The notes under the pieces are model-generated. The model did not search any database, was not told the origin of the DNA, and saw only the letters and a list, made by a program, of their open reading frames with translations. Shown here piece after piece: positions 16,801 through 37,971 of a stretch of 64,000 bases of DNA. The stretch is from a bacterium. Its GTDB lineage: Bacteria; Patescibacteriota; Patescibacteriia; UBA1558; UBA10009. A program made the position numbers and the translations under genes. Positions within the stretch are counted from its first letter, which is position 1. Each line of letters opens with the position of its first letter. The DNA lies in assembly GCA_018672055.1 (NCBI GenBank), contig JABHGM010000001.1, forward strand, positions 72,884 to 136,883, given 5' to 3'.

Positions 16801-17055
16801 CTTAAATAAAGTTGTCTTATAATGGTATACAGATATTTTTAAAATTGTACCAAAAGCAATAATTAATAATATTACTACCACCGTCATATTACAAACATCC
16901 CTAACTAATGGCCAACCTATTTGCACTGCTTCTGAACTTAAAAAATTATTGTATTGAAAAATAACAACCAATCGCTCCATAAACCAAGCAAGAAGTGTGG
17001 CAGTGAGACTGATAATCTCCATCAAAAGCCAATTTATCATGTTGAAAAAATCCAT
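13801..17055 (-). CDS. Large polytopic membrane protein (N-terminal ~7 TM, large hydrophilic C-terminal region with (GEKSEK)n repeat)
   Basis: N-terminal 330 aa are dominated by hydrophobic helices. Gly/Ala-rich linker. C-terminal KGEKSEKGKKGEKSEKGEKGEKGEKSEKGEKGEKS low-complexity tract. Immediately downstream of the giant secreted protein gene. Confidence 0.6.
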   Translation of the reverse strand: MDFFNMINWLLMEIISLTATLLAWFMERLVVIFQYNNFLSSEAVQIGWPLVRDVCNMTVVVILLIIAFGTILKISVYHYKTTLFKLIIMAILINFSKTILGFLIDVSQVVMLTFVNGFKGALLINLNSAFGLEHILSMTVNDDGESFEAFGGLLLGLILLIVACFTIAAFFVVLLFRILTLWILVIISPIAFIAYTFPNLQKYWSEFWGHFFKEITIGIVLAFFMWLSLSILSLSITSDSAILNQFSNDPNVIKYGEVSGQDIEYKEGSEEKFSVTVSAISETPKLFTFIVSIALLWMALMFSQKASGAAGTIAGKIGTKLSDIGKGSIKAGLAPITASFKGAGFLAKTVAKRSGKYVERKVLDSATAEGAGIFRKSLMLLTKPGWEGLAKRGDVLLDESRQVASAQAYDFYNKIMTGGKLQTSHATTAESRIAKTKVEDMNVSGLQDVMAKFDLALDMKPSTEKDRVIRGLFAYASKESWIDDLMSIPRIMEDLMEKGSEEEKKYYYLKDIKQKKEDEGFKGEDLEVEISNASIAYDEKREEDLYNETDKEQKWKGLSKEEKDKEFDKLNKVLTGAEQRLIYGHVEIEPPKKKGKFFKEYIIMDHNGDESDAGKDVVYDLEEPAWANGHWEDVGWVRADPETGKQRLLDYTIKDKNGLTEVARERLTEASKRDGPERGQAHMYSARMGDGTNASCDIDESYRRMHELSGNSNEIYKVASATKSRTGNTNVGGSALGAPLSKDESEHTKAHDYKSVSDLRVFLSVLDASMRNGIASYDKSGAQFVSDNSEANRNYAKGAAIEVRQGSKTGFMIVKFDEKEKDKDGKFIRDKDGKSKITGKMIAINAANGAVYDVEKVDSEDGSESRFIVGDKIAKSVKNYGYEKHRMYINGGPGEEDLEDEIRSPKKGKKAKDGKKGEKSEKGKKGEKSEKGEKGEKGEKSEKGEKGEKSANVNQSIQDVINGLDKVAMTLDDFGKQKVTDIKKGVKNNNKEQLVNGSIGLVLESSMVEIGQLKGKDWRASSMARLEFIEILKRQIKKQFRENRSVMNFLMGDLTNSLNDIKDKIKDNNTGKMAIDEFINDKRK
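14205..14345. repeat. Coding 9/18-nt tandem repeat (cacccttct / cagattttt units) encoding a (GEK/SEK)n tract
   Basis: Direct visual periodicity of ttcacccttctcagattttt units inside the 13801..17055 CDS. Confidence 0.7.
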
Positions 17056-17061
17056 ATATTA

Positions 17062-20000
17062 TTATCTAGGAATAATTTGTATTTGACCATTAAACTGAGG
17101 TGATGAACCTAAATCACATCTTTCATTACCGTAAATTCCACTACTACACCATCCCCAATGATCTTTAACTGAAATGGTTGGTCCAGAATAATAGCAAATA
17201 CCATCATCTGCATCAATCCAATTTTCTATGTTAGTATCCCAACATTTACTACATCTGTCCCCTTCAGTATTAGTTACACAACTATATACATGTTTAACTT
17301 TATGAGGACTGCTTTCTTGAGGTCTATTATTAATTGGACCTGAAAAACTTTGAATATCACTTGGACTTGGACCATCATTCCATTTAATTAATATTTCTTC
17401 TATAGGTAATTGATCTGGATTACCCATTATAGTATTAAAGCTAAGATTAACTGCTCCCCCTGGTGCAGTAAGTGTTATAACACCACTACTATCATTTAAT
17501 TCAATATTTGTAACTTGAGGAGCCACTCCTTCTTCCTCAACAACAGAAATCTTCCCATCAGCATCATCAAAATCATCTGTTACATCTTCATAATGTCCAT
17601 CTTCCCATTTATATACTCCATATACTTCAGCAAATAAATTTAATACCCTGTCTCTTAAAACATCTGCTAATTCTAAAGGCTCTCCAAGACAAACTGGATA
17701 AAGTGTTTGATTTAAACAATCTTGATTACCATTAGCTATATCACATGATGTATTATTAGTATTTCCATCTGCATTTGTACATAGAAAGCTGGATGTATCA
17801 GTCAGGTTACCACATGTTACATAATCTAGTTCTCCATCTTCAGTACATATATCATTATCTGCATTATCTTCACTATCAGCACACTCTGTATATTCAGTTT
17901 CACCGCTTGCATTTAAACAATATAAAACACCATTATTAGAGGATTGAATTTCACTACAAGTATTATACTCTTGAACTTGAGGACAATCTAAATCTGTAGC
18001 ACATATCTGATTATTAGTAACGCCAGAAGTTGAATCTGTATAACACATTCTATTTGTTGCTAGTATTGGTTTACGACAAGTTGGATATTTTGAATCAAAA
18101 CATTCTATACTAGCATTACAGGCTTGACCATTTGAAATATTAGCTGAGTTATAGCAATAATCTCCAACGCCAATACATATACCACTTAAATCAGCACCTG
18201 AATCATCTTCACATTCACTGCTATTAATACAAGTATTGCCTTCATTAAATCCGCCTAAGCATTCCCTATTTGAAACTGAATGTCCAGTATAAGTTGAAAA
18301 TGGTAAACCGCCTCTTGCAAAAATTTCTGGCTCATATGAACCATTAGGTATATTTGAATTAGAACCACTATGAATATTCAAAGGAACTGCTGGATTATCA
18401 ATGGAATTCCAACTATATGGATCACCTGCTGAAGGTTCAGAGACACTACCATATAAGTATGAATCTTCAACCATATTAGATTTCATATAACCCATTTCAT
18501 TTCCTTCATCAAAATCCCAGTTATTATTATATCTTGTAAACCAAGCTTTCTCTTTTTGACCACTCTCACTTGTATCTTTTACAGTTTTAACTAAATAACT
18601 ACATGATTCTTTCAAATGGAATATTAGTTGATATCCCCAAGTATCTTGATTATTACCATCGCCATCATCATCGTGACCATAATGTTCTATTTCTTCTATA
18701 TTTCCATTAATATCAAACTTGACTTTAACGCCTACCCTTTCTTCTCCTGAGCTATCACATGAACCATCTTCATTGTTCCATTTATCTGGATCTGTTTCAA
18801 CGCTATTTCTACAATATGCAAAGAATAGAGAATTATCATCAGACCATTCTAATAAGGTAAATGTTTCACCCGGATTTGGGAATTGCTTATCACCACCATT
18901 AGATATGGTTCTAGCTTCAATCTTATGAATATCTGATCGTTTTATATTCCATATTTCTTGATTATCACCATCTGTATAGAATGAAGTATAATCTTCCCCA
19001 GGGTAATACCACTCGTGTTCTTCATTTGAAACCTCAATATACTCAGTGCTCCATTCAAAACCATCATAACCACACTGCATATTACTTCCCCAGTTCCAAC
19101 ACTGATTACCATTATATATAGTCTCTTTGTAATGACTTGTACTTTCTAAACAGTAATAAAGAGGCATAGGACCAGTATAGTAGCTAGTAGCACTATCACC
19201 TAAAGATATTAATGATTCCCCAGATATATTATCTACTGGGTACCATTGTATACATGCTTCCTGGTTATTTGGATCATACTCTAAACAATAGCCATGCCAT
19301 CCATTATATTGCTTTAGATCGCTATAATTACAGCTAGGAGCATTATCAGTTGGATATAGTCTACAATCTTTAGTTAATAACTTATCATCAGAAACAAATA
19401 ATCCAGGTTCTATACTAAATTTATCAAACCAAACTAATCCAGTACCACCTGATTCTTCTGTTGTTGGTGCATCAATAGTAATACGAGCAGCCACAGCTCC
19501 GTCAGGAATAATTATTTCAGAATTTGATTCAGAAGGTTCATAAGAAATTAAGAATCTCTGCCAATTAACATTAGGTGTAAATATTTCTAAAGAATTAGAT
19601 AACTCATCACCAGATCCATCAAGCCAAGTAAGTCCAACCTTAATCTTTTGACTACCATTACTAGATTTTGCATAAAAACTTAAATTATATTGCATATTTG
19701 GATCAATACTAATCTGACTTTGATTTACAACTGAACAATTAAAATTACCATCTTCACCAACAACTGATTGTGATAAATCTACACTCAAACTATATGTACC
19801 ATCATAAACATTTAAATTATTATTTTCTATTCCATAATTACAATATTCTTCTTCACCAAACTGCCAACTTGATAATCCAGAAACTGAATCAATTAACTCA
19901 AAACTACTATTTGAAATAGCAACCGATCTACCTGTTTCTAACATTAATTCAGGTGGATAATAACCAGCTATAACCTTGTCAGTATTCCAAATTAAACCAG

Positions 20001-23000
20001 CTTTAGAATACCCTGATAAATTACGTATTCTTTCAACACCTTCAGGATTACCATTTAGATCTAAAAAGTTATATGTTTGTTCTGAATAATCTATACTGGT
20101 TTCTAATTTCAGGCAGTTATCCGGATTATTTGGATCAATCTTTGAACATCTGCCAATATCTAAACAAACCGACGTTGTAACTCCAAATTCATCTTGAACT
20201 TCTATCGAAGAAGTACAGAATAAAGTTTCAGAACATTCTCTGTCTTTAGCAACTTGAATAACTGTATTTGAATTACAATATGCTGAGTCAGAAAAATTAG
20301 TTAAACAACTTTCAGGAACTGTAGGCACATTACCATCTAAAGTTTGTTTAGAGCTATGAGAAATACTAGCTACACTTGTATCATTAAATGGTACACATCC
20401 AGATCCTCTGTCTACAATACCATCGTCGCAATATTCTACTGTATTTGCTTTAGTATAGTATGCTTGGCAAGCAATTGAATAAGTACAGCTACTAGAACCA
20501 GCCGGAGCATAACAAACAGTACTATCTTCTACTTTACAATATTCACCTTCAGTATTTGATATATCATCATCTAAGAAGCAAGTCCAATCATTTTCAGTAT
20601 AAGGGCATGGAATAATACCAAAATCATCACCTGGTAAATCTATAGCTTCGCAAACAAAATGATCAACTCCATTAATATTCTTTTGACAGTAAGTTTTCCC
20701 ATTTAAAGTAATATATTCTTCACTAGCTTCATCCCCACAAACACCCTTCATTTGAGGTGAAATTAAAGCATCACATTGCTGAACGCCATCAATATAAGGA
20801 TTCTCTGGATCTCTGTATTCAGTACAAGAAGAAGCGTAACTTTCACATGTGCCAACCCAACCTTCATAGCCTTCTTGATCAGAGCTTGGCATAAATTTAG
20901 ATGAGCTACATAAATCACCGGAAGAATTAAGCCATTTAGCTTGATTTAAATTATAGGTACAAGTTCTGTCAAAACCATCTTCACTTAAAGCTATTGGATC
21001 GAAATAATAATTCTGACCAGTAAAGTCTCCATTAAACTCTGTACAATAAAGAGCGCTCTCGCTACAAAGCTGTCTTGGATATTCATCAGGATCATTAATT
21101 AAATAAGAAGTATTAAAATCAGTAATATAATTTTCTAAATATGTTTCATAATCACCACCACTATAGTATTCGTTCTGTCTGTCTAAAACAGGTACCCCAA
21201 CCAAAGAGCAACCTTTTTCTGAACACTCTTTACTTGGATCATTAACGATGTATACGATTTCATCATTTTTAACTGTTATATTTTCATAACTACATGAAAA
21301 TTCTCCATCTTGAATTATACATTTCTCAACACCTCTTATACTACAAACATTATCTTCAACAATACCAACAGAACTATTACATAAAGCAGTAAAGACTTCT
21401 TCTTTTTGTTGTGAAGAGTTATGTGTATCTATAAATGCTTCACAACTAATATTATTCGGAGAACAAATATAGTCAAAAGATTTTAAATAATGTATCTCGT
21501 TGTCCCTGTCAGTATATTCTTGGCAATTAAGCTGAGTTCCAACAGTTGGTAAGTCACATATTGCTGGTGTATTCCAAGAATCTTTAACCATGAAAAATTT
21601 ATCACTATATTCTTCCAAAACAATTTCATCAATTACATAAGCCTCTCCTGAACCAATATTATTTATAGCAATACGTATAGTTGGATCTTGAATATTATTA
21701 TTTATTTGTATTGGACCTACTCTATATTCCTGCCAGTTAGAACCTATATCATTGAGTTCAAAATTAACATAATTGGAATAATCAGTATTGTCTACTATAT
21801 ATTTTTGCGAATCAAAAGGAATGCTCATAGCCCAGAAAGTAAGTTCATATTGTTTATTTTCAGAAAAGTTAATTCCATTCAATGTCTTAATTATTGAATT
21901 ATTATCAGTAGCAACAAATAATGAATGCTCACCTACATAAACAGTAGTATTTACATTTGAAAGTCCTTGATTACTATTATCAGTATTATTAAAATCTCCA
22001 ATTGAACCATCTTCAAAGCCATCTTCAAAAACATTAAATATATTATTACCACCACCACCTTTATATTCCTTACATTGATTAGCTAGAGCTGGACAACTTA
22101 CACCTTCAAATGGATCAGCATTAAATATCTGACCTGTTGAAGTTCTTCTATATGGATGACACTCTGAAGAAGCAGTAATAACATATCTTTGATCAATATA
22201 ATATGGATCACCTGAAGAAGTAATAAACTCACGGCAATTTAAATTACCTTCAGGACATGAACTTGACCAGGCTTCAATAGTTTCAGCTGTATCATCGCAA
22301 GTTTGATCAAAATTATTAGAATCATCTGATAAGTTTAAATGTGTACAAGGAGCGCCTGCGAATACACCTCCTGTAATATTATTATTTAACAACTGCCATT
22401 TCTTTAATTGAAAACCTGTAGTATCTGAACCTTCCCAAGTAAAATATGAGCTTATATTAGGACTTGCTTCAGATACACATTGTCTTAAGTATGAAAAATA
22501 TTCTAAACCTTCACCACCACTTGAAACCTCATCTAAATTAGTAAATTGTTCACAACCAACATGCTGGGCACTACATGATTTACCAGTTGATGGTATAAAA
22601 TTTTGAAATGATGACTCAAAAGTAGCATCTTCGATCTCTTCAAAATAAGTACCTAGTTCTAAAAAGTTTTCATAACCAACACATTGATTACTACAAATAT
22701 CTCCACTTGATAATTTTGCTGGAACCTCACTACCACCTAAAACCGGTGTATAGCCTTCACAACCAACGTCTGCTTGAGAACAATAATTTACATACTGGTC
22801 ACATTCAGGATTATCTGAGCTACAATCTAAATATTCAGGTTGCACTTTTAGACGGGTTGATGAATGAGCAGTAGTATCACTATATGCTGGAATATATTGA
22901 TCTGAATCAATACTATAACCTTCTGTATTATCCTCTACAATAGGTGATCTGAGTATTACTAATTGTATATCATCTAACTTAGTATTAGATGACGAACCTG

Positions 23001-25467
23001 AATTTAAACTAAAATCTAATTTAATAAACTTTGATGAAACAGCTAAGCTATTATTTGTTGCTGAGCCAATTTCATATTCTTTAGTAGTAAAATCATCTGA
23101 TACAGTAATAGCACCTGATGATAAATCAGTTGAACCATTAGATGAGCCTGGTTGACCACTAGCTAAAGCTACATATTCAGTTATTGATAAAGTAGATGTA
23201 ACTTCTTGATCTGACTTTATCTTGTAACTTACATGATATGCATATTCTGAACTAACTGGTATATAACCAGAATTAAATAATTGACAACTAGCGCCAGATA
23301 TATTCATCTGACCAGCTTCAACATTAAATAGACATTGATTGCCTGTTTCCCAGCCTGAAGATATACCAAAAGCGAAATTACCATTTTCAACTAAATTAAT
23401 ACCTGGCTTTAAAAGAATTAATTCCCGACAACCAGCATTACTTGGTGAGCATTGAGAAGCTTGATTATTTAAATATATACGATCAGTTTTTGACCACTCA
23501 TCTGCTACTTTATTTGTAGAATACCAAGAACATCCGGCCTCGCTCTGATCACATTCAAGTAAAGTATCCCTTAAATATGAAACACTTGTGTTAGTAGTAA
23601 CATTAGTAAAAGTTTCACATGAGTTATAATAATCTTCACATGATTCACCTTCAAATCTCCAAACTGATTTTTCTTCTACACAATAACCATAATTTTTACA
23701 GCTACCATCATCATTGTATGAAATACAACTCTTCCAATCACCACAATAATCCCCAGCTCTTATTACAGTTCTAACTGGAATATCAGGAAATTCTGCACCA
23801 GCATCACAATACGGAGTTTCGATTGGAGAATTATCTATATTAGTACCTACTACATTATTTTCTGAACACTGTATTTCATCTTGATATAGCTCAGTGCCAA
23901 AACCTTGTTTTTCACAATAAGTTTTAGGTGATTTCAAAACCCAATTTGGATCAACTAAATGATAGAATGGATTAAAATCAAAAACAAAAGATTCATCTAA
24001 ATCACCCTCTTCAAATAATCTATCTTCTGTATTAGGCCTCTGCCCATTACTATTTGTATCTTCTCTACAATCTTTTGGATAATGAGCATCATTAGGGTGT
24101 AGCGGATCTTCAAAACAATCAATTAAATAACTTAAATTAATAGTGTCTTTCTCACCGTACCTAGAATTGTACATAGCTGCTAATTCCCAACCAACAGGTA
24201 TTATTCTATGAGTTCTAAGGATTACTAAACTCCTGTATGGCAAACCTTCTCTATAGCTTGGCTGAGTTGTTTTATCACTATTAAAACCAAAGACAGCATC
24301 TTTGTTAATATCACCATCATTTATTGCTTGAATTAATGTCTTATTACCTCTAATTGCTCCAGCCATGCCATTAGTAATTACCTCAGCTGTAGGTCCTGCT
24401 ATATCTGTTATCTTAGGTAAAACTAATTTATCAATAACACTTACCTCACCAGATGTAAAACTTACTTCAGCTAATTCACCAAATTGTTTTTGTCCTCCAC
24501 CGCTATACCTACCCCCAGATCTAACTATAAAATTAGCAAAAGAAGTAACTCTGCTACCACTATCAAAACCTTTCTTAAATAGAGTATCCATCCACTTAGA
24601 CATTAAAGTGTTAGTGAAAGTTGATAAGAAAGCATCAACAATTTCACCAGTATAAGTAAGTTCTACTTCGCCTGTTTTTTCATCAACAGATCTAAAATGA
24701 TTACCTAGTAATACAGCAGGTGTTTTAATAGTTCTAGTTATAGGAGAAGTAATATCTTTTAAACCTTGATTAACAGTTCGTTCTAAAGCAGCATTAACTC
24801 TAGCTTCTTCTTGCTCTTCCAAAATATTTGTTTGTAAAGTTAAATAAATACCTAAATCATTTTGTTCTGGTTGAAACTGCGCTTTAATACCTGAAGTGAA
24901 TTGACTTGGATCTTCACCAACATCTCTAATCCATTGATCCCAATTATCCTTAATCTCTGACCATTTACATCGTGCTTTCGGTATATTAGTTCCTTCACCA
25001 GTTGTGGAACCAGGTCCCAATTCTCTAAATAATGAATAGTGAATATTAAATTTAACAGTAGGTCCTTGTAATCCTGCTGGATTACAAACATCAAAATCAG
25101 TCCAATCCTGAGTTAGCTCATCCATAAATGTGCCAAGAGCAGCATCACCAGCTGCACTGGTAGCATCTTGAAAATTCTTGCCTTCAAATAGAGGTTCTTG
25201 TCCTCTACCACCAGTAGCAATGTATGTTGCAGTATCATAGGCAACCTGACTTAAAAATACTTTAGCACCTTGCTTAAAAGCAGTACCAATAGCTGATTCT
25301 TTAAACCATTCAGCAAATTTTTGGACACTTTCTACAGTTCTTTGAGCAAAAGCAGGAAAATCAGTTACAGCTTGAGCTCTTGGAACATTACTAAAAATAA
25401 AAACTCCTAAAAATAAGATTAAAACACTTAGGAGTATAAATTTTTGAAATAATGTTTTTTTCATCAT
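17062..25467 (-). CDS. Giant (2801 aa) secreted Cys-rich surface protein
   Basis: Signal peptide (MMKKTLFQKFILLSVLILFLGVFIFSNVPRAQA). ~480-aa Cys-poor N-terminal domain, then >2000 aa with frequent paired Cys and Asn/Ser/Thr/Gly-rich segments. Single uninterrupted ORF of 8.4 kb. Confidence 0.7.
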   Translation of the reverse strand: MMKKTLFQKFILLSVLILFLGVFIFSNVPRAQAVTDFPAFAQRTVESVQKFAEWFKESAIGTAFKQGAKVFLSQVAYDTATYIATGGRGQEPLFEGKNFQDATSAAGDAALGTFMDELTQDWTDFDVCNPAGLQGPTVKFNIHYSLFRELGPGSTTGEGTNIPKARCKWSEIKDNWDQWIRDVGEDPSQFTSGIKAQFQPEQNDLGIYLTLQTNILEEQEEARVNAALERTVNQGLKDITSPITRTIKTPAVLLGNHFRSVDEKTGEVELTYTGEIVDAFLSTFTNTLMSKWMDTLFKKGFDSGSRVTSFANFIVRSGGRYSGGGQKQFGELAEVSFTSGEVSVIDKLVLPKITDIAGPTAEVITNGMAGAIRGNKTLIQAINDGDINKDAVFGFNSDKTTQPSYREGLPYRSLVILRTHRIIPVGWELAAMYNSRYGEKDTINLSYLIDCFEDPLHPNDAHYPKDCREDTNSNGQRPNTEDRLFEEGDLDESFVFDFNPFYHLVDPNWVLKSPKTYCEKQGFGTELYQDEIQCSENNVVGTNIDNSPIETPYCDAGAEFPDIPVRTVIRAGDYCGDWKSCISYNDDGSCKNYGYCVEEKSVWRFEGESCEDYYNSCETFTNVTTNTSVSYLRDTLLECDQSEAGCSWYSTNKVADEWSKTDRIYLNNQASQCSPSNAGCRELILLKPGINLVENGNFAFGISSGWETGNQCLFNVEAGQMNISGASCQLFNSGYIPVSSEYAYHVSYKIKSDQEVTSTLSITEYVALASGQPGSSNGSTDLSSGAITVSDDFTTKEYEIGSATNNSLAVSSKFIKLDFSLNSGSSSNTKLDDIQLVILRSPIVEDNTEGYSIDSDQYIPAYSDTTAHSSTRLKVQPEYLDCSSDNPECDQYVNYCSQADVGCEGYTPVLGGSEVPAKLSSGDICSNQCVGYENFLELGTYFEEIEDATFESSFQNFIPSTGKSCSAQHVGCEQFTNLDEVSSGGEGLEYFSYLRQCVSEASPNISSYFTWEGSDTTGFQLKKWQLLNNNITGGVFAGAPCTHLNLSDDSNNFDQTCDDTAETIEAWSSSCPEGNLNCREFITSSGDPYYIDQRYVITASSECHPYRRTSTGQIFNADPFEGVSCPALANQCKEYKGGGGNNIFNVFEDGFEDGSIGDFNNTDNSNQGLSNVNTTVYVGEHSLFVATDNNSIIKTLNGINFSENKQYELTFWAMSIPFDSQKYIVDNTDYSNYVNFELNDIGSNWQEYRVGPIQINNNIQDPTIRIAINNIGSGEAYVIDEIVLEEYSDKFFMVKDSWNTPAICDLPTVGTQLNCQEYTDRDNEIHYLKSFDYICSPNNISCEAFIDTHNSSQQKEEVFTALCNSSVGIVEDNVCSIRGVEKCIIQDGEFSCSYENITVKNDEIVYIVNDPSKECSEKGCSLVGVPVLDRQNEYYSGGDYETYLENYITDFNTSYLINDPDEYPRQLCSESALYCTEFNGDFTGQNYYFDPIALSEDGFDRTCTYNLNQAKWLNSSGDLCSSSKFMPSSDQEGYEGWVGTCESYASSCTEYRDPENPYIDGVQQCDALISPQMKGVCGDEASEEYITLNGKTYCQKNINGVDHFVCEAIDLPGDDFGIIPCPYTENDWTCFLDDDISNTEGEYCKVEDSTVCYAPAGSSSCTYSIACQAYYTKANTVEYCDDGIVDRGSGCVPFNDTSVASISHSSKQTLDGNVPTVPESCLTNFSDSAYCNSNTVIQVAKDRECSETLFCTSSIEVQDEFGVTTSVCLDIGRCSKIDPNNPDNCLKLETSIDYSEQTYNFLDLNGNPEGVERIRNLSGYSKAGLIWNTDKVIAGYYPPELMLETGRSVAISNSSFELIDSVSGLSSWQFGEEEYCNYGIENNNLNVYDGTYSLSVDLSQSVVGEDGNFNCSVVNQSQISIDPNMQYNLSFYAKSSNGSQKIKVGLTWLDGSGDELSNSLEIFTPNVNWQRFLISYEPSESNSEIIIPDGAVAARITIDAPTTEESGGTGLVWFDKFSIEPGLFVSDDKLLTKDCRLYPTDNAPSCNYSDLKQYNGWHGYCLEYDPNNQEACIQWYPVDNISGESLISLGDSATSYYTGPMPLYYCLESTSHYKETIYNGNQCWNWGSNMQCGYDGFEWSTEYIEVSNEEHEWYYPGEDYTSFYTDGDNQEIWNIKRSDIHKIEARTISNGGDKQFPNPGETFTLLEWSDDNSLFFAYCRNSVETDPDKWNNEDGSCDSSGEERVGVKVKFDINGNIEEIEHYGHDDDGDGNNQDTWGYQLIFHLKESCSYLVKTVKDTSESGQKEKAWFTRYNNNWDFDEGNEMGYMKSNMVEDSYLYGSVSEPSAGDPYSWNSIDNPAVPLNIHSGSNSNIPNGSYEPEIFARGGLPFSTYTGHSVSNRECLGGFNEGNTCINSSECEDDSGADLSGICIGVGDYCYNSANISNGQACNASIECFDSKYPTCRKPILATNRMCYTDSTSGVTNNQICATDLDCPQVQEYNTCSEIQSSNNGVLYCLNASGETEYTECADSEDNADNDICTEDGELDYVTCGNLTDTSSFLCTNADGNTNNTSCDIANGNQDCLNQTLYPVCLGEPLELADVLRDRVLNLFAEVYGVYKWEDGHYEDVTDDFDDADGKISVVEEEGVAPQVTNIELNDSSGVITLTAPGGAVNLSFNTIMGNPDQLPIEEILIKWNDGPSPSDIQSFSGPINNRPQESSPHKVKHVYSCVTNTEGDRCSKCWDTNIENWIDADDGICYYSGPTISVKDHWGWCSSGIYGNERCDLGSSPQFNGQIQIIPR

Positions 25468-27717: not shown

Positions 27718-28888
27718 GTAAACTATTTTTAGGAAGTAAATTAACTAATAATGAAGCCATAGCAGCTAAGAAGAAGGCAACATTAATTGAGACAAAATTA
27801 AGCATTATTAATATTAAAATCATAATAATTACTCTGCCAGTTTGTAAATACATTTCACGAAGGGTTGAATACTCATCGACAAAATGACCAGCATCTGCAG
27901 CTTTTTCATACATAAGTGCATCAAAAGGAGTTCTAAGAATTATTAAGGCAAAGTTATGATAAGTAGAGGCTAAAAATATATGAAAAGCTGAGGTAATAAA
28001 TATTTTTACAATCCAGCCAAAAGAATATAATATAGAACCAATTTTCATTAATTTTCTCTTGCTAAATTTATCAGTAAAATCACCCATGACTAGCCTGACA
28101 ACAACAGCAACTAAAGTAACAAGTGAAGCAATAAGACCAACTGATAAATACTCACCATTTAAAAGTTGCCACATAAAGATAGGCCATAAAACAGCTCCAA
28201 CAAAATTCTCTGCTCCATCACCCATATAGGCTATCATCATTTTACGATTATCTTTCTTAAAAAATTCTTTCCAACATTGTTTATGAGACCAAGTAAATTT
28301 TACATTGATTTTTGGTACAAAAAGGAGTGGTATAATACCAACTAATATTAAAATAATTACAATAATAAATACCATTTGAAAACCAAATGATTTAATAAGT
28401 AGAGCAGAAACAAATGGAATAATAATACCAAGTAGTGAAGTAAATGAATCTAGAATACTAATTTGTTTACCTCTATTTTTTTTATCTGATAACTTAGTAA
28501 ATTCAGTATGATATGGTACCCAATAAAGCATCCTGTATACAGTAATAAAAAGAAGAGACAAAACTGTAAATACAACAATATCAGTTTCAAAAAAGTATAA
28601 ACTAGCGAAATAACCAGCTAGAAATGGAAAGGCCCAAATAATAGAATTGCGTATTCCAATATAATTCATAAATATAGCACCAGGAGTAGCTGTAAATATG
28701 TATAAACCAAAAGATATTAAATAATATACAATAACTTTTTCTAAACTTTGATATTGAATTAACAAATAAACTGGTAAAAATAATCCTACAAAACCACCAG
28801 CAATTAGTAATATAGATCGTGAGGTATATAAAGAAGCTAAACCAGGAGGTAATAAATGACCTTTCTTATAATCCTCTATTATTTTCAT
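27695..28888 (-). CDS. Polytopic membrane transporter (MFS-like), hypothetical
   Basis: ~12 hydrophobic segments over 397 aa. No diagnostic motif recognised. Confidence 0.4.
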   Translation of the reverse strand: MKIIEDYKKGHLLPPGLASLYTSRSILLIAGGFVGLFLPVYLLIQYQSLEKVIVYYLISFGLYIFTATPGAIFMNYIGIRNSIIWAFPFLAGYFASLYFFETDIVVFTVLSLLFITVYRMLYWVPYHTEFTKLSDKKNRGKQISILDSFTSLLGIIIPFVSALLIKSFGFQMVFIIVIILILVGIIPLLFVPKINVKFTWSHKQCWKEFFKKDNRKMMIAYMGDGAENFVGAVLWPIFMWQLLNGEYLSVGLIASLVTLVAVVVRLVMGDFTDKFSKRKLMKIGSILYSFGWIVKIFITSAFHIFLASTYHNFALIILRTPFDALMYEKAADAGHFVDEYSTLREMYLQTGRVIIMILILIMLNFVSINVAFFLAAMASLLVNLLPKNSLHEKASIR

Positions 28889-31266
28889 ACTACTAAGTTT
28901 ATTAATTTATTAGGAACATATATAAACTTTTTAATTTCATTACCATCAATAAACTTTTTAATCTTAGGTAAATCTAAAGCTTGTTTTTTAATATCTTTTT
29001 CAGAAATACCTCTATTTACAATAATCGTATCTCTTAACTTACCATTAACTTGGATAGCAATAGTAATTTTATCATCAATAATTAACTTCTCATCATACTT
29101 AGGCCACTTATTATTAAAAATTGTTTCTTTATTACCAATTTCTTCATTTATTTCTTCACATATATGCGGAGCAAAAGGAGCAAGTAATATTAAAAACTTA
29201 TTTAAACTATCCTTAGTTATATTTAACTTAGTAACTGTATTCATAAATTCCATCATTGAAGCAATGGCTGTATTAAAACTTAAATTCTCAATGTCTTCAG
29301 TAACCTTTTTAATAGTTTTATGTAATATCTTAGTAACTTCTTCATCATCTTTATCTGCTTCTTTCAAATTAGTACTATACTTATAAACTTTTTCTAAAAA
29401 TCTTCTAATACCAATAATGCCTCTCTTATTCCAAGGCTTAGAATCTTCTAAAGGTCCCATAAACATTTCATACATTCTCAAAGTATCAGCGCCAAATTCA
29501 TCAACTACATCATCTGGATTAATTACATTACCCCAACGCTTACTCATCTTACGAGAATCTTCAGCAAGTATTAATCCTTGATTTCTTATCTTAGTAAAAG
29601 GTTCATCAAAATTTAAATAGCCTTGATCTCTTAAAAACTTAGTAATAAATCTAGAATAAATTAAATGACCTACTGCATGTTCCATACCACCTATATATAA
29701 ATCAACTGGTAGCCAATACTTTAAACTTTTTTTACTAAAAGGTTCTTTATTATTACTAGCATCACAATATCTTAAAAAATACCAAGAAGAACAAACAAAT
29801 GTATCCATGGTATCTACCTCTCTCTTAGCCTTATCACCACATTTAGGACATTTAACATCGTGAAATGTTTTAGAATCAACTAACGGAGACTGACCAGTTG
29901 GCTTAAAATCAACGTCATCTGGTAATATAACTGGTAAATTCTTTTCGGGAACAGGTACAGTGCCACAGGCATCACAATAAATAATAGGTATAGGTGAACC
30001 CCAATATCTTTGCCTAGAAACTAACCAATCACGTATCTTATATTGTGTCTCTAAATAGCCATCTACCTTATTAGTTATTTTTTTAATAGCTTCACTAGAA
30101 GTTAAGCCATCAAATTTATCACTATTTATTAATATACCATCTCCAGTAAATAATTCTTCTTTATTATCGTCTGACTTAATTACATCAATAATTTCTAAAT
30201 TATATTTCTTGGCAAATTCATAATCGCGCTCATCATGAGCTGGAACTGCCATAATAGCTCCTGTACCATAATTTGTTAATACATAATCTGCAATATATAT
30301 AGGTATTTCTTTGTCATTTGCAGGATTTATAGCAATCAAACCTTTTAATTTAATGCCTGATTTTTCTTTATTCAGATCCGTTCTCTCTAAATTACTTTTT
30401 GATTTAGATTTTTCTATATATTTTTCTACTTCTTTAAAATTTTCTATGTTACCTTTTAACTTATTTACTAATTCATGCTCTGGAGCTAAAACCATATAGG
30501 TTGCCCCAAATAGAGTATCGGGTCTAGTTGTAAAAACTTCAATTTGATCATCGGTTGTTAATACTTTAAATTTAAGTCTAGCGCCTTCTGACTTACCTAT
30601 CCAATTTTTTTGAGTCGTCTTTAAAGCTTGTGACCAATCTAGGCCATCTATCTTTTCTAAAAGCTCTTCAACATATTCTGTTGTTTTAAAAAACCATTGA
30701 TTTAAATCTTTTTGAATAACATCATTTTCGCATCTTTCACATTTACCCTGAACTACTTGTTCATTAGCTAAAACCGTCTTACAAGAATCACACCAATTAA
30801 CAGGTGCTTTCTTTTTATAAGCTAAATCTTTTTCATAAAGCTTAAGAAATAACCATTGAGTCCATTTATAATAATCAGGTGATGAAGTATTTACTTCACG
30901 ACTCCAATCATATGAAAAACCTAAAGATTTAATTTGTCTTTTAAATGTTTTGATATTTTCTTTAGTCTTTTCTCTTGGATGAACGCCTTCTTTAATTGCA
31001 AAGTTTTCAGCAGGTAAACCAAAAGAATCCCAACCCATTGGTTGCAATACATTAAAACCTTGAAACCTATAATACCTACTAGCTATATCAGTAGCTGTAT
31101 AACCTTCTGGATGTCCAACATGAAGACCATCACCTGAAGGATATGGAAACATACCAAGAATATACTTCTTCTTACCTTTGCCATTTTCAACTCGATTAAT
31201 TTCTAGTTGATCCCACTTAGCTTGCCATTTTTTCTCTATTTTTTGATGATTGTAATATGTAGTCAT
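28885..31266 (-). CDS. leuS: Leucyl-tRNA synthetase
   Basis: MFPYPSGDGLHVGHPEGY (HIGH-like) and KMSKRWGN (KMSKS) motifs. Overall LeuRS N-terminal signature WQAKW. Confidence 0.9.
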   Translation of the reverse strand: MTTYYNHQKIEKKWQAKWDQLEINRVENGKGKKKYILGMFPYPSGDGLHVGHPEGYTATDIASRYYRFQGFNVLQPMGWDSFGLPAENFAIKEGVHPREKTKENIKTFKRQIKSLGFSYDWSREVNTSSPDYYKWTQWLFLKLYEKDLAYKKKAPVNWCDSCKTVLANEQVVQGKCERCENDVIQKDLNQWFFKTTEYVEELLEKIDGLDWSQALKTTQKNWIGKSEGARLKFKVLTTDDQIEVFTTRPDTLFGATYMVLAPEHELVNKLKGNIENFKEVEKYIEKSKSKSNLERTDLNKEKSGIKLKGLIAINPANDKEIPIYIADYVLTNYGTGAIMAVPAHDERDYEFAKKYNLEIIDVIKSDDNKEELFTGDGILINSDKFDGLTSSEAIKKITNKVDGYLETQYKIRDWLVSRQRYWGSPIPIIYCDACGTVPVPEKNLPVILPDDVDFKPTGQSPLVDSKTFHDVKCPKCGDKAKREVDTMDTFVCSSWYFLRYCDASNNKEPFSKKSLKYWLPVDLYIGGMEHAVGHLIYSRFITKFLRDQGYLNFDEPFTKIRNQGLILAEDSRKMSKRWGNVINPDDVVDEFGADTLRMYEMFMGPLEDSKPWNKRGIIGIRRFLEKVYKYSTNLKEADKDDEEVTKILHKTIKKVTEDIENLSFNTAIASMMEFMNTVTKLNITKDSLNKFLILLAPFAPHICEEINEEIGNKETIFNNKWPKYDEKLIIDDKITIAIQVNGKLRDTIIVNRGISEKDIKKQALDLPKIKKFIDGNEIKKFIYVPNKLINLVV

Positions 31267-34230: not shown

Positions 34231-34650
34231 ATGCGAAATTTTAAAAAGTCATGTCAGAAGTCATGCAAAAAGTGTAAAAAATATTTATGCCAAGAAATCA
34301 AGTTTAATCTTGATAAATGTCATGAGTATTTATTACGTAGTACTTATGTATTATGTGCCTGCTTAGTAGTATATTCACTACTTATGCTCAACGGCGTACT
34401 AGCTACAAGTAATGAGAGCTTTGTCTCTAAAACAAATAACTATATAGCTTATGCCGCAGAAGACATATGGATGGATACAGTTATCTTCTCTGAAAAAACC
34501 GGAGAAGCATATAATAAGCTACAGAGCATAACAATTAATACAGCAGTCCGTAGCATGACTAAACTAATAGTTAAAACTGGAGACATTCTAGCTGAAATTC
34601 CTGATATTCTAACAGCTCCTCCACCCCAAGTAATGGCCCGAGGCTCATAA
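34231..34650 (+). CDS. Hypothetical small secreted/membrane protein (Cys/Lys-rich N-terminus, hydrophobic anchor)
   Basis: 139-aa ORF behind a strong promoter. An alternative overlapping frame (34157..34366) exists; chosen on length only. Confidence 0.35.
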   Translation: MRNFKKSCQKSCKKCKKYLCQEIKFNLDKCHEYLLRSTYVLCACLVVYSLLMLNGVLATSNESFVSKTNNYIAYAAEDIWMDTVIFSEKTGEAYNKLQSITINTAVRSMTKLIVKTGDILAEIPDILTAPPPQVMARGS

Positions 34651-34679
34651 TTGACTTTAACTACAATTTAACATATACT
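34651..34679 (+). promoter_or_regulatory. Sigma70-like promoter TTGACT-N17-TATACT driving the valS T-box leader
   Basis: Consensus hexamers with 17-nt spacer immediately after the stop of the upstream ORF. Confidence 0.55.
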
Positions 34680-34685
34680 GAGGAT

Positions 34686-34876
34686 ACAACTTACAAAAGT
34701 GTATCCTCTTTTTATAGGATAGCTTTGAGAATAATGTCACTCAAAGAAACTGCTAAAAGAAACCAAATAAATGGAAGTAGACTTAGCCGGGTTCGCCCGT
34801 AATAGCGAAGACTTAAGTAAAAGTTAAGGTGGTACCGCCAGAGATGGCCCTTTAAACAGAAGGGCTTTTTATTTAT
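34686..34876 (+). promoter_or_regulatory. T-box riboswitch leader, valine specifier (GUC), with terminator/antiterminator
   Basis: T-box core AAGTTAAGGTGGTACCGCC (34821-34839). Specifier-loop hairpin CTTTGAG-aataatGTCa-CTCAAAG with GTC followed by A (34736-34738). Terminator GGCCCTT-taaacag-AAGGGCT plus T-run (34846-34876), ending 15 nt before the valS ATG. Confidence 0.8.
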
Positions 34877-34890
34877 CTTAAAATAACTAT

Positions 34891-37800
34891 ATGAAAGATT
34901 TACCAAAAATATATAATTCAAAAAGTTTTGAAGACAAAATATACTTGAAATGGGAAGAGTCTGGATTTTTTAATCCAGATAATTTACCAGAAAGAAATAA
35001 AAAATCTTTCACTATTTCTCTACCACCACCTAATGTAACGGGTCAGTTACATTTAGGTCACGCTGCTATGCTCGCCTATCAAGATACTATGACTAGATAT
35101 CATAGATTAATTGGTGATAAAACATTATGGTTGCCAGGCATGGATCATGCAGCCATAGCTACTCAATCTGTTGTAGAAAAAAAATTAAATAAAAAGAAAA
35201 AAACAAGACATGATTTAGGTAGAGAAAAATTCTTGAAAGAAGTAAATAATTTTGCTGAAGACTCTAAAAAAACAATTAGAAACCAAATCAAAAAGATGGG
35301 TTCTTCTTTAGACTGGTCTAGAGAACACTTTACCTTAGATGAAGACCTTTCAATTGCGGTCAAAACTGTTTTTAAAAAAATGTATGATGATGGATTAATA
35401 TATAAAGGTGATCGAGTAGTTAATTGGTGCCCTACGTGTCAATCAACTTTAGCTGATGATGAAGTAGAATATGTCGAGAAAAAAGCACCTTTCTATTATT
35501 TTAAATATGGTCCAGTAATAATTGGTACAGCACGTCCTGAAACTAAATTTAGTGACAAAGTAATAATAGTTCACCCTAAAGATAAGAGATATAAAGATAT
35601 AATAGGTAAAGAATTTAACGTTGAATGGATTGAAGGCAAAATTAAAGCTAAAGTAATTGCTGATATAATTGCTGATATGGAAATTGGTACTGGTGCTATG
35701 ACCATTACTCCAGCTCACAGTATGGTTGATTTTGAACTAGCACAGAAATATGATCTAAAAGTTGAAAAAATTATTGATAAAGATGGTAAGTTAACATCTG
35801 CTGCTGGCTCTATGGCTGGCCTGGACGTTGAAAAAGCTAGAAAAAAAGTAGTTGAAATACTAGATAAAAAAGGTTTAGTTCATGAAATAGATAATAACTA
35901 TACTCATAACCTGTCAATCTGCTATAGATGTTCTACTCCCATAGAACCACTCCCCTCCAAACAATGGTTTGTTGATGTAAATAAGAAAGTACCTGGTAGA
36001 AATAAATCACTCAAACAATTAGCTTCAGAAGTAGTAGAAAGCGGGGAAATTAAAATGATACCTAATAGATTTAATAAAACATATTTCCAATGGATGGATA
36101 ATTTAAGAGATTGGTGTATTAGTAGACAAATCTGGTATGGTCACAGAATCCCTGTTTGGTATAAAGAGCCAATAGAGATAACATACTTTGTTCATGGTAC
36201 AACCCCTGATAATGAAAAAAGTATAGCCACTGGTCTAAATGATGTAAGTCTTTCTGAATTAGGCATAAAACAATCAAAAGAACTTAAAAAAACTTTAAAA
36301 GATAAGAAGTTTGATGTAATAATAACTTCTGATCTAAAAAGAGCTACTGAATCAGCGAATTATGCTTTTGGTAAAGATTATATAACTGATAAACGTTTAA
36401 GAGAAATTAATTATGGTGATATGACAGGTAAGTCTTCTAAGGAAGTATATGATTTAAAGAAAGAAACTATTAATGAACCTTACCCTAACGGAGAAAGTCA
36501 TAAAAATGTTGAAAAAAGAATGCGAGATTTAATAGATGATATTTCTAAAAAATATAAAGGTAAAAAAATAGCTATTATAGCTCATCAAGCAACTCAACAA
36601 GCTCTAGATGTTATACTGAAAGGAAAAACCTGGAAACAGGCCTTTGATGAAGATTGGAGAAACACAAAAGCTTGGCAACCAGGCTGGAAATATAAAATAG
36701 AAACTGATGATGAAACATATGTTGGTTTAGAAACTCCAAAAGGAAAAGATTGGATTCAAGATGAAGACACGCTAGATACTTGGTTTTCTTCTTCATTATG
36801 GACGTTTAGTACTTTAGGCTGGCCAGAAAAAACAAATGATTTAAAAACATTCCATCCTACTCAAGTAATGGAAACTGGTTATGATATACTATTTTTCTGG
36901 GTAGCTCGTATGATAATCATGTCTACTTATGTATTAGAAGAAATACCATTTCATAATGTTTACTTACACGGTTTAATCAGAGATAAAGAAGGTAAAAAAA
37001 TGTCTAAGAGCCTAGGAAATGGTATTGACCCTCTTGAAATGATAGATAAATATGGAGCTGATGCCTTAAGACTCTCTATGATTGTTGGTAGCACTCCTGG
37101 TAATGATTTAAGATTATATGAAGAAAAGATTCAAGGTTATAGGAATTTCATAAATAAACTATGGAATATTTCTAGATATATACTAACTACTGTTAAAAAG
37201 GTAGAACAAATTAAAAAAGAAGATCTTGAACCTCAAACAATGGCTGATTATTGGATTCTAAATCAATTAAATAATATAATTGATAATACTACGGATAATT
37301 TAGAAAATTTCAAATTTTCTCAAGCTGGCGAAGAATTATATGAATTTACTTGGAATAAACTAGCTAATTGGTATATAGAAATAGCTAAGATAGAAGGAAA
37401 TAAAGATAAAATATTATTATATATCCTAGAAAAACTATTAATCCTATGGCACCCAATGTGTCCCTTTATTAGTGAAGTAATTTGGGAACAATTTAATAGT
37501 AAAGAATTACTTATAATAAGTAACTGGCCAAATAAATTAAAATTAAAAGAAAAAGAAGTAAAAGAATTTGATTTGATTCAAGAAATTATTAGTGCTATAA
37601 GAAATGCTAGGGCTGAACATAAAGCTAATACTAAAAAAACATACAGTTGCTCTATTTCAACAAAAAATCAAAAGCTAATTGAAGATAATAAAGAAATAAT
37701 TGAAAAACTAGGAAAAGTAAAAATTACACCTAAATCACCAGGTATAAAATTAAATGTAAATAATGTGGATATAATACTAGATATTAATGAAAGTCCTGAA

Positions 37801-37971
37801 GTAAAAAAGAATAAAGAAAAAAGTATTATTAATTTAGAAAGATATATTGGAATTCAAGAAAATAAATTAAAAAATAAATCTTTTTCTAAAAATGCACCCC
37901 CAGATGTAATATTAAAAGAAGAAGAAAAGTTAAAACAAGCAAAAGTAGAATTAGAAAAACTAACTAGTTAA
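34891..37971 (+). CDS. valS: Valyl-tRNA synthetase with ~190-aa inserted histidine-phosphatase-like domain
   Basis: PPNVTGQLHLGHA, WCPTCQSTLADDEVE, WCISRQIWYGHRIPVWY, DTWFSSSLWTFSTLGWP, KMSKSLGN. Insertion at ~aa 425-625 carries YFVHGTTPDN, SDLKRATESA, PNGESHKNVEKR and IAIIAHQATQQAL motifs. Confidence 0.9.
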   Translation: MKDLPKIYNSKSFEDKIYLKWEESGFFNPDNLPERNKKSFTISLPPPNVTGQLHLGHAAMLAYQDTMTRYHRLIGDKTLWLPGMDHAAIATQSVVEKKLNKKKKTRHDLGREKFLKEVNNFAEDSKKTIRNQIKKMGSSLDWSREHFTLDEDLSIAVKTVFKKMYDDGLIYKGDRVVNWCPTCQSTLADDEVEYVEKKAPFYYFKYGPVIIGTARPETKFSDKVIIVHPKDKRYKDIIGKEFNVEWIEGKIKAKVIADIIADMEIGTGAMTITPAHSMVDFELAQKYDLKVEKIIDKDGKLTSAAGSMAGLDVEKARKKVVEILDKKGLVHEIDNNYTHNLSICYRCSTPIEPLPSKQWFVDVNKKVPGRNKSLKQLASEVVESGEIKMIPNRFNKTYFQWMDNLRDWCISRQIWYGHRIPVWYKEPIEITYFVHGTTPDNEKSIATGLNDVSLSELGIKQSKELKKTLKDKKFDVIITSDLKRATESANYAFGKDYITDKRLREINYGDMTGKSSKEVYDLKKETINEPYPNGESHKNVEKRMRDLIDDISKKYKGKKIAIIAHQATQQALDVILKGKTWKQAFDEDWRNTKAWQPGWKYKIETDDETYVGLETPKGKDWIQDEDTLDTWFSSSLWTFSTLGWPEKTNDLKTFHPTQVMETGYDILFFWVARMIIMSTYVLEEIPFHNVYLHGLIRDKEGKKMSKSLGNGIDPLEMIDKYGADALRLSMIVGSTPGNDLRLYEEKIQGYRNFINKLWNISRYILTTVKKVEQIKKEDLEPQTMADYWILNQLNNIIDNTTDNLENFKFSQAGEELYEFTWNKLANWYIEIAKIEGNKDKILLYILEKLLILWHPMCPFISEVIWEQFNSKELLIISNWPNKLKLKEKEVKEFDLIQEIISAIRNARAEHKANTKKTYSCSISTKNQKLIEDNKEIIEKLGKVKITPKSPGIKLNVNNVDIILDINESPEVKKNKEKSIINLERYIGIQENKLKNKSFSKNAPPDVILKEEEKLKQAKVELEKLTS

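Follow-up and report, generated by a model that had tools for sequence, protein, structure and literature searches.

A histidine phosphatase domain nested in the CP3 hairpin of a patescibacterial valyl-tRNA synthetase

Aminoacyl-tRNA synthetases are among the most conserved enzymes, and new catalytic domains within their catalytic core are rare. The valS gene considered here, which lies on a stretch of 64,000 nucleotides from a Patescibacteria genome (contig JABHGM010000001.1 of assembly GCA_018672055.1; this whole stretch is referred to as the window), raises the question of what a second enzyme domain is doing inside a valyl-tRNA synthetase (ValRS), and whether it is a genuine part of the protein at all. 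A preliminary description of the locus had read the gene as a ValRS of the candidate phyla radiation (CPR, or Patescibacteria) with an embedded branch-1 histidine phosphatase, and both the host lineage, on which the ValRS homologues and the GTDB loci agree, and the embedded domain were borne out. The presence of a phosphatase in this ValRS is real and far beyond chance: the Pfam family His_Phos_1 (PF00300) matches the valS product at residues 435-592, i.e. nucleotides 36193-36666, with an E-value of 2.4e-31 and 109 bits at a gathering score of 21.7, while the segment 36163-36765, to which the domain had originally been assigned, gives an E-value of 8e-33 when translated alone (109-114 bits over the queries used). 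As judged from alignments and models, a whole phosphatase of about 180 residues is spliced into the turn of the first β-hairpin of connective peptide 3 (CP3) of a complete class Ia ValRS.

Architecture and integrity of the valS product

According to curated models, sequence motifs and predicted fold, the valS product is a valine--tRNA ligase, and charging of tRNA(Val) with valine is predicted. In agreement with the preliminary description, which had seen one intact gene with the canonical ValRS blocks, the reading frame is an uninterrupted, single open reading frame (ORF) devoid of internal stops. The protein passes the NCBIfam equivalogs NF004349 (960 bits, cut-off 704) and TIGR00422 (910 bits, cut-off 612); both matches fall into two stretches that break at about residue 440, and the Pfam tRNA-synt_1 match is likewise divided, with one piece on each side of the insert. 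Anticodon_1 and the editing-domain family score above their Pfam gathering scores, and Val_tRNA-synt_C, the C-terminal arm, is matched weakly, with 20.2 bits below a gathering score of 25.9. The part upstream of the insert comprises the first Rossmann half, the CP1 editing domain, CP2, the WCISRQ/GHRIP linker and the first strand of the CP3 hairpin, whereas the downstream part resumes with the CP3 return strand (ETYVG) and continues through DTWFSS, the second Rossmann half and the anticodon-binding domain to a C-terminal coiled coil. Both signature motifs, HLGH (residues 54-57, nucleotides 35050-35061) and KMSKS (residues 703-707, nucleotides 36997-37011), are intact. The full-length AlphaFold2 (AF2) model, built from an alignment of 118 sequences, has a mean predicted local distance difference test (pLDDT) value of 93, a predicted template modelling (pTM) score of 0.82 and no segment below a pLDDT of 50, and its top match in the Protein Data Bank (PDB) by Foldseek is the Thermus thermophilus ValRS 1GAX (E-value 1.6e-67, template modelling (TM) score 0.86 normalised to the target). 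Within the 64-kb window there is neither a second ValRS-like ORF, the sole other class I match being a LeuRS at 28885-31266, nor a second His_Phos gene.

The segment between GHRIPVWY and DTWF measures 207 residues in the window protein as opposed to 26-44 in insert-free relatives, in keeping with the earlier remark that it is far longer than in usual ValRS. Since insert-free relatives manage with such a short segment, the insert was ruled out as a known ValRS subdomain of all bacteria. The boundaries of the insert are set by related contigs (L001, also L002, L003 and the GTDB species representative L021) that share about 80% DNA identity with the window: valS of L001 aligns with it up to 36166 and again from 36708, leaving a clean in-frame difference of 540 nt or 180 codons. 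These 180 codons are absent at the site in both syntenic relatives, L001 and L021, and the window and L001 have the downstream order of a PilB-like ATPase, a 329-aa membrane protein and FtsH in common. The originally assigned end, 36765, thus lies about 19 codons beyond the insert, inside the CP3 return strand of ValRS. At the protein level, L001 reads GHRIPVWY-KG-DKTYV, which forms a tight β-hairpin, and the window protein reads GHRIPVWY-KE-phosphatase-DDETYVG, such that the insert occupies the tip, or turn, of the first β-hairpin of the variable CP3 subdomain, about 8 residues past the linker between CP2 and CP3 (the WCISRQ..GHRIP/WYG segment). The nomenclature of class Ia enzymes assigns WCISRQ..WYG to the CP2-CP3 linker and the sequence after it to CP3 (PMC7955072, PMC7191050), the topology of which differs among class Ia enzymes and between species (PMC7191050). 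CP3 is the variable connective peptide between CP2 and the second Rossmann half. In the AF2 model, the phosphatase is bracketed by the inward strands 422-425 and 428-434 and the outward strands 599-603 and 609-611. Because the first and last phosphatase strands continue the two strands of the hairpin, each enzyme can presumably fold on its own.

Two points could be taken to favour an artefact or an excisable element, be it an assembly chimera, a fusion of two ORFs by gene calling or an intein-like element: the insert matches a free-standing gene exactly in size, and introns and inteins are known from Patescibacteria genomes. A second contig of independent origin (L004, ENA ERZ4200980) covers the gene over 3547 nt at 99.94% identity and encodes an identical 1026-aa product, and the base composition is unchanged across the insert. 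A chimera is refuted by the existence of a syntenic relative that lacks exactly the 180 codons together with a second assembly that carries the same fused gene; the continuous reading frame and dozens of homologous fused genes, obtained from many samples with many assemblers, also dispose of a gene-calling fusion. Likewise, an intein or otherwise spliced element was ruled out, because the phosphatase fold fills the insert and leaves no room or spare sequence for a Hint domain, while the junctions (K-E...T-D-D) are devoid of the Cys/Ser/Thr and His-Asn splice residues; no intein family appears in the Pfam results for the valS product. An artefactual or excisable origin is therefore so improbable that it can be neglected, and the original reading of an in-frame domain insertion, which was no fusion artefact, stood up. 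The features of the gene are compiled in Table 1.

Table 1. Coordinates of valS, its nested phosphatase and its leader in the window
Feature	Position (nt)	Strand	Basis
valS ORF, 1026 aa, ValRS with nested histidine phosphatase	34891..37971	+	ORF list, NCBIfam, AF2, Foldseek
ValRS N-terminal part, aa 1-425	34891..36165	+	Pfam tRNA-synt_1 aa 17-437; L001 alignment, 82% nucleotide identity to 36166
Inserted histidine phosphatase, 180 codons, edge ambiguous by one codon	36166..36707	+	Absent in syntenic L001 and L021; Pfam; AF2; Foldseek
Val434-His435, RHG position with Val for Arg, predicted nucleophile His435	36190..36195	+	Structure alignments, column profile
Arg484, SDLKRA motif, phosphate-pocket arginine	36340..36342	+	Conservation in free-standing and fused sequences
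Arg502-Leu-Arg504-Glu505 (RLRE)	36394..36405	+	Conservation; presumed catalytic roles from family knowledge
His565, second active-site histidine	36583..36585	+	Aligns with second His of 9mmh and 4ij5
ValRS C-terminal part	36708..37971	+	Pfam Anticodon_1 aa 786-917; 79% identity to L001 from 36708
T-box-like leader	34706..34872	+	Permissive Rfam scan, sequence inspection, L001/L003 comparison

Motifs, fold and relatives of the inserted phosphatase

For comparison of the insert with its counterparts, the 120 best ValRS hits, all of them from Patescibacteria where named, were surveyed. An insert of more than 140 aa occurs at the site in 57 of the 120, and 55 of these carry phosphatase motifs. The latter fall into class A (n = 30), which features [V/A/P]HG.. 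and DWR..W.PGW.Y like the window protein and its free-standing relatives, and class B (n = 25), which comprises two subclades, has the canonical RHG and shares only about 30% identity with class A.

In alignments with solved histidine phosphatases, FVHGTT of the window insert takes the place of the RHG motif, SDLKRA that of the second arginine motif and AHQA that of the second histidine, while RLRE and GES fall on the acidic motifs; all four motifs originally quoted for the domain hence have canonical counterparts. His435, Arg484, His565 and Glu505 are invariant or nearly so in 177 aligned sequences. The position of Arg484 is occupied by Arg in 120/120 free-standing and 55/57 fused sequences, the other two being gapped, non-phosphatase inserts, and that of His565 by His in 120/120 and 56/57, respectively, with the remaining one gapped. 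In insert numbering, His14, Arg63, Arg81, Arg83, Glu84, Arg122 and His144 are invariant in the 120 free-standing proteins and Glu114 is present in 119 of them. Similarly, each of the 55 phosphatase-type ValRS inserts keeps His14, Arg63, Glu84, Glu114 and His144, and 54 keep Arg122 (one has Lys).

The one branch-1 hallmark that the window insert lacks is the arginine of the RHG motif, which is replaced by Val434. As had been noticed at the outset, the catalytic histidine is kept and the arginine changed to valine, and this proved to be a subfamily trait: since Val is the norm at this position in the free-standing subfamily (114/120), the exchange does not reflect decay of this particular copy. 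The surroundings of the active site offer a potential substitute. Class A inserts have Arg at both arginine positions of RLRE, except for one of the 30 with Asn at the second, whereas the RHG-bearing class B1 inserts are mostly non-basic at one or both. This reciprocal pattern suggests that Arg502 and Arg504 may compensate for the absent RHG arginine. Glu505 would, by analogy with established knowledge of the family, act as general acid.

A dead pseudo-phosphatase that serves ValRS as a structural, ligand-sensing or protein-docking module would account for the loss of one of the four canonical phosphate-pocket residues, and also for the relaxation in fused copies of some positions that are near-invariant in free-standing proteins, for example the Trp that follows Gly448 and the Tyr at 537 (His in the window protein). 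It is at odds with the prevalence of Val, Ala or Pro at the RHG arginine position throughout a subfamily whose conservation is otherwise very high, 24 columns being invariant in 117 sequences, and with the presence in every phosphatase-type insert of the nucleophilic and the second His, the Arg and the two Glu. Moreover, class B inserts with canonical RHG reside at the very same site, and the conserved RLRE arginines could fill the pocket. Because of this pattern of residue conservation, a pseudo-enzyme is considered rather improbable.

Modelled alone by AF2, the insert reaches a pLDDT of 96, so that both enzymes are predicted with high confidence, and Foldseek relates the model to many solved histidine phosphatases with a probability of 1.00. 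The closest of them are the small-molecule phosphatases iPSP1, HFP, GpgP, PhoE and CobC, at about 25% identity. Scores of the whole protein against the specific NCBIfam equivalogs are far from their cut-offs, with 82.8 of 162.9 bits for TIGR03162 (CobC), 56.6 of 225 for dPGM_arch, 51 of 350 for PspA and 37 of 261 for GpmB, and the insert alone fares little better, with 87.7, 61.9, 54.9 and 41.8, respectively. As every one of these equivalog cut-offs is missed, transfer of a substrate from the solved phosphatases is ruled out.

In database searches, not synthetases but free-standing proteins of 176-190 aa match the insert best. They are 57-63% identical to the insert, align from about their residue 3 to the C-terminus, and stem from Patescibacteria (Magasanikbacteria, Buchananbacteria, Taylorbacteria) as well as from DPANN archaea (Woesearchaeota, Nanoarchaeota). 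The typical member is a free-standing protein of 181 aa, and the signature of the subfamily consists of [V/A/P]HGTT in place of RHG and a Trp-rich C-terminus, DWR..W.PGW.Y. By this comparison the insert is the equivalent of a whole free-standing gene of a Patescibacteria/DPANN-specific subfamily. Whether fused and free-standing class A domains are each monophyletic is not resolved in a neighbor-joining tree. A search with a class B1 insert retrieved only 13 free-standing proteins, at 32-38% identity, a result that says nothing of where this class came from.

The gene neighbourhoods of three free-standing phosphatase genes are variable. In Magasanikbacteria GW2011_GWC2_40_17 (L005 2654-3073, 1-1020), a free-standing phosphatase gene lies about 2 kb from a tRNA-Thr_ED gene, which is aminoacyl-tRNA deacylase-like, and about 4 kb from cysS; as other neighbourhoods vary, this proximity is probably coincidental. 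The class I synthetase adjoining the free-standing P0101 is LeuRS-like by eye and aligns only locally with the window ValRS, at about 27% identity.

Fusions of the same phosphatase extend beyond ValRS. In seven representative clusters (P0260, P0263, P0265, P0266, P0277, P0252, P0270) a class A domain is placed N-terminally to the signal recognition particle (SRP) receptor FtsY, which consists of SRP54_N and the SRP54 GTPase, and in P0270 a Ser_hydrolase domain additionally precedes the phosphatase. In P0253, an IleRS-like class I synthetase of 1281 aa (tRNA-synt_1, Anticodon_1, DUF5915), the phosphatase spans residues 798-932 between the catalytic and the anticodon-binding domains, a site that differs from the one in ValRS. 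Furthermore, fusions of an α/β hydrolase with the phosphatase occur as free-standing proteins (P0013, P0055, P0064). A reading in which the domain is specific to ValRS is weakened by its fusion to FtsY and to the IleRS-like protein, and as a separate protein the class A domain is far commoner than in fusion with FtsY or synthetases.

Turnover at the insertion site and role of the phosphatase

The preliminary description had known of no phosphatase-fold domain within an aminoacyl-tRNA synthetase. While the literature searches agree with this, the frequency of inserts among the surveyed ValRS reveals that the window protein is no singular case. Among the other ValRS hits of the survey, the spacing of the anchor motifs amounts to 26-68 residues. 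In 29 of the 150 top cluster representatives, clustered at 50% identity, a single continuous match covers the insert together with the downstream ValRS flank, and in 21 of these the upstream flank is covered as well. Additionally, a His_Phos domain resides in valS of 13/80 GTDB species representatives, no two of the 80 loci being derived from the same assembly. Fused ValRS sequences are already public under the labels 'class I tRNA ligase family protein' or 'valyl-tRNA synthetase'.

The distribution of the insert is patchy, and in a neighbor-joining tree of the ValRS core (828 columns) the states class A, class B and no insert are intermixed. The core of the window protein is 83% identical to that of P0122, which has no insert, and 73-67% identical to other nearest insert-free ValRS (P0123, P0127, P0129, P0130 and the P0138-P0143 group). 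By comparison, it shares 70.5% with P0124, whose class B insert is 30% identical to the window insert, and about 61% with the nearest full-length class A proteins. Identities of core and insert are weakly correlated (Spearman 0.21-0.29). A single ancient insertion followed by strict vertical descent is thus unsupported, given the intermixed states and the weak correlation. The sequence comparisons clearly indicate that the insert state, whether through gain, loss or swap, changes faster than the ValRS core.

Judged from these relatives, the CP3 hairpin is a permissive hotspot that holds nothing, a class A domain, a class B domain, an ASCH domain or tandem arrays. Inserts at the site range from 150 to 720 aa, with the tandem arrays reaching about 700 aa. 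In P0134 and P0191, a class A domain is combined with a module of about 128 aa, and P0133 has the same arrangement plus a class B domain. The ~128-aa middle module has no significant sequence match in Pfam or the PDB, and an ASCH/PUA-like assignment by eye was not confirmed. P0140 corresponds to P0133, and P0207 to P0134, with the addition of a serine hydrolase (PF06821) in the adjacent CP3 loop after YVG.EPP. The insert of P0182 comprises class A and ASCH (PF04266, 26.2 bits), P0189 and P0231 contain an ASCH-like module alone, clearly homologous to the P0182 type, and P0181 carries class A together with a second phosphatase domain.

Many metagenome-assembled genomes (MAGs) that serve as GTDB species representatives and have a Patescibacteria-type valS (L013, L016-L019, L021 and others) are titled 'uncultured Gammaproteobacteria bacterium'. 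On these third-party assemblies, the title looks like a generic or wrong label.

What, then, does the phosphatase do? Most probably, the valS product is bifunctional, with an autonomous and presumably active phosphatase accommodated at a permissive surface hairpin of ValRS. His435 would attack a phosphomonoester to form a phospho-histidine intermediate, with Glu505 acting as the likely general acid and with Arg484, His565 and probably Arg502/Arg504 holding the phosphate. The domain would most likely fulfil the function of its free-standing counterparts, the substrate being a small phosphorylated metabolite that may derive from nucleotides, and would be tethered to, and co-expressed with, ValRS while taking no part in aminoacylation. 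From the residue conservation and the predicted fold, we infer its activity and the small-molecule nature of its substrate. Autonomy, in turn, is favoured since the class A domain also occurs on FtsY and in the IleRS-like protein, and since the nearest ValRS cores are insert-free. No finding links the phosphatase by its chemistry to the activation of valine.

Some observations speak against an active but merely tethered enzyme. Loss of the RHG arginine is unusual in the superfamily, and catalysis may be altered or absent. In yeast IleRS, the CP2-CP3 linker contributes to the lining of the pocket that accommodates the 3' end of tRNA (PMC7955072), and an insertion about 8 residues past the homologous linker makes a link to tRNA possible. 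Finally, the recurrence of ValRS, the IleRS-like protein and FtsY as partners, along with ASCH, hints at more than passive tethering.

From these observations arises the alternative that the phosphatase acts on tRNA or on an intermediate of aminoacylation. By analogy with the CP1 editing domain, the insert would then be a novel accessory or repair module of ValRS, which might for instance clear a 3'- or 2'-phosphate off damaged CCA ends ahead of charging or hydrolyze a phosphorylated by-product. Besides the neighbouring linker, this alternative draws on the co-inserted partners, ASCH being a fold often linked to RNA and the serine hydrolase a possible esterase, on the presence of the domain in an IleRS-like class I synthetase as well, and on the strict retention of catalytic residues in the ValRS inserts of both classes. 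It is opposed by the N-terminal position on FtsY and the far greater abundance of the free-standing form, by the closest ValRS relatives, which work without an insert, by the nearest solved structures, which all act on small molecules, and by the 80 GTDB loci, where no free-standing phosphatase was found within 10 kb of valS. To our knowledge, moreover, no histidine phosphatase acts on RNA ends. Direct action on tRNA is thus regarded as unlikely. A coupled role in the wider sense, for example one that repairs tRNA 3' ends or salvages nucleotides derived from RNA, is kept alive by the proximity of the linker, the ASCH and possible esterase partners and the hosts engaged in translation and targeting, and is given a small but real chance. 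A related and slightly bolder proposal, to which we likewise assign only a minor probability, considers the CP3 hairpin an exchangeable cassette site that recruits small hydrolases and that would, together with the FtsY and IleRS-like fusions, point to an undescribed translation-coupled activity of CPR and DPANN, for example the repair of phosphorylated or damaged tRNA 3' ends or the salvage of RNA-derived nucleotides at the point of use.

Irrespective of its substrate, an autonomous phosphatase at this position amounts to a complete second enzyme within the ValRS core of a large and poorly understood radiation of ultra-small bacteria, at an insertion site that appears to act as a hotspot gaining, losing or swapping whole domains between close relatives. 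If the phosphatase did act on tRNA or on translation-derived nucleotides, it would represent a new step of quality control or salvage. If it is only tethered, it would constitute a natural case of tolerated domain insertion, useful for protein engineering and informative as to how reduced genomes build multifunctional proteins. In addition, an abundant and highly conserved phosphatase subfamily of CPR and DPANN without the canonical RHG arginine is brought to attention. To a specialist, the architecture, its breadth, the turnover at the hotspot and the parallels in FtsY and the IleRS-like protein would come as a surprise, even though passive tethering is the simplest explanation.

The valS leader, other window features and comparison with known systems

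Upstream of valS, a leader with T-box-like features was recognized. It contains a hairpin at 34723-34746 with a 10-nt terminal loop, AAUAAUGUCA, that presents the valine codon GUC followed by A (GTC at 34736-34738), a T-box core, AAGGUGGUACCGCC, at 34826-34839, and a terminator consisting of a GC hairpin and a U-run at 34846-34872. The valS ATG follows some 20 nt later, and this succession fits the competing antiterminator and terminator that T-boxes place directly before a synthetase gene. Compared with L001, the leader segment shows 83% identity, and both L001 and L003 keep the GUC-A loop without change. At the gathering threshold, the Rfam T-box model (RF00230) has no match; a permissive Rfam scan assigned 26.6 bits at a gathering score of 93 to 34706-34855, with an E-value of about 1e-3 in a 1-kb search. 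The Rfam alignment puts ACU at the canonical specifier position, a stretch that is not conserved in L001, and the Stem I of the leader is much shorter than in the model. The hairpin at 34723-34746 may represent an unusually short Stem I, and a valine T-box of this shortened kind is plausible from the sequence features. The preliminary description had placed valS under a valine T-box and on that ground called it clearly the functional gene; core, terminator and conserved GUC-A loop agree with a T-box, but the Rfam score leaves the assignment short of clear.

In L001 (311-1300) and L003 (397-1386), a gene of the adenosine-deaminase family (PF00962) is situated between leader and valS, apparently within one operon, and no such gene is found in the window at the corresponding position, 34646-34890. 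The gap of about 800 nt between pilT and valS harbors an ORF of 139 aa with a Cys/Lys-rich N-terminus (34231-34650, + strand), a candidate gene without a Pfam match; homology to L001 starts only at 34646. Two very large tandem ORFs, of 2801 aa (17062-25467, - strand) and 1084 aa (13801-17055, - strand), are also present in the window.

Among known systems, the closest counterparts of the domain are the free-standing 'VHG' phosphatases, such as P0051 ('Phosphoglycerate mutase', Candidatus Magasanikbacteria GW2011_GWC2_40_17) and P0049 (a Woesearchaeota MAG), with which it shares VHGTT, the invariant set of Arg, Glu and His, the Trp-rich C-terminus and the level of identity given above. They differ in being encoded by separate genes in variable neighbourhoods, whereas the window copy is nested in ValRS and relaxed at some positions. 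The solved phosphatases iPSP1 of Hydrogenobacter (4IJ5/4IJ6), HFP of riboflavin synthesis (9MMH), PhoE (1H2E), GpgP Rv2419c (4PZ9) and CobC (6NRU/6E4B) have the fold in common with the insert (TM score 0.74-0.79 query-normalised, root-mean-square deviation 2.3-3.2 Å), as well as a similar size and the positions of the catalytic His, Arg, Glu and His, and are set apart by their low sequence identity and by an RHG arginine in place of the Val found here.

With regard to the host enzyme, all domains and motifs of the T. thermophilus ValRS (1GAX) and of ordinary bacterial ValRS recur in the window protein. The difference lies between GHRIP.WY and DTWF, where T. thermophilus ValRS has a short zinc-binding segment and the E. 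coli enzyme about 34 residues, and where the 26-44 residues of ordinary ValRS contrast with the 207 that form a second enzyme here. A weak match (59-63 bits) connects the insert to the Rv2228c-type RNase H/acid phosphatase (NF005567), in which a branch-1 phosphatase is likewise joined to a nucleic-acid enzyme; this system is an end-to-end fusion with another partner enzyme, and the score is far below its cut-off of 326.

Class Ia synthetases with extra domains in their connective peptides are known, and the phosphatase in ValRS is an architecture without a description that could be found: full-text literature searches retrieved no account of a histidine phosphatase inside ValRS or any other synthetase. 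The nearest CPR precedent is the work of Mukai et al. (2017), which reports domain fusion and swapping in CPR TyrRS only (PMC5370408). An added enzyme domain in a class Ia synthetase is also the feature of NF040702 (isoleucine--tRNA ligase, N-acetyltransferase domain-containing), of which the window protein is no member (202.9 bits, cut-off 1999). The catalytic domains within synthetase cores of which we are aware, CP1 and INS, serve proofreading. The CP1 editing domain, too, is an extra enzyme domain nested in a Rossmann connective peptide of a class Ia synthetase; yet it is universal and has a known tRNA-directed function, whereas the insert of the window protein is a phosphatase, patchily distributed and placed at the CP3 hairpin.

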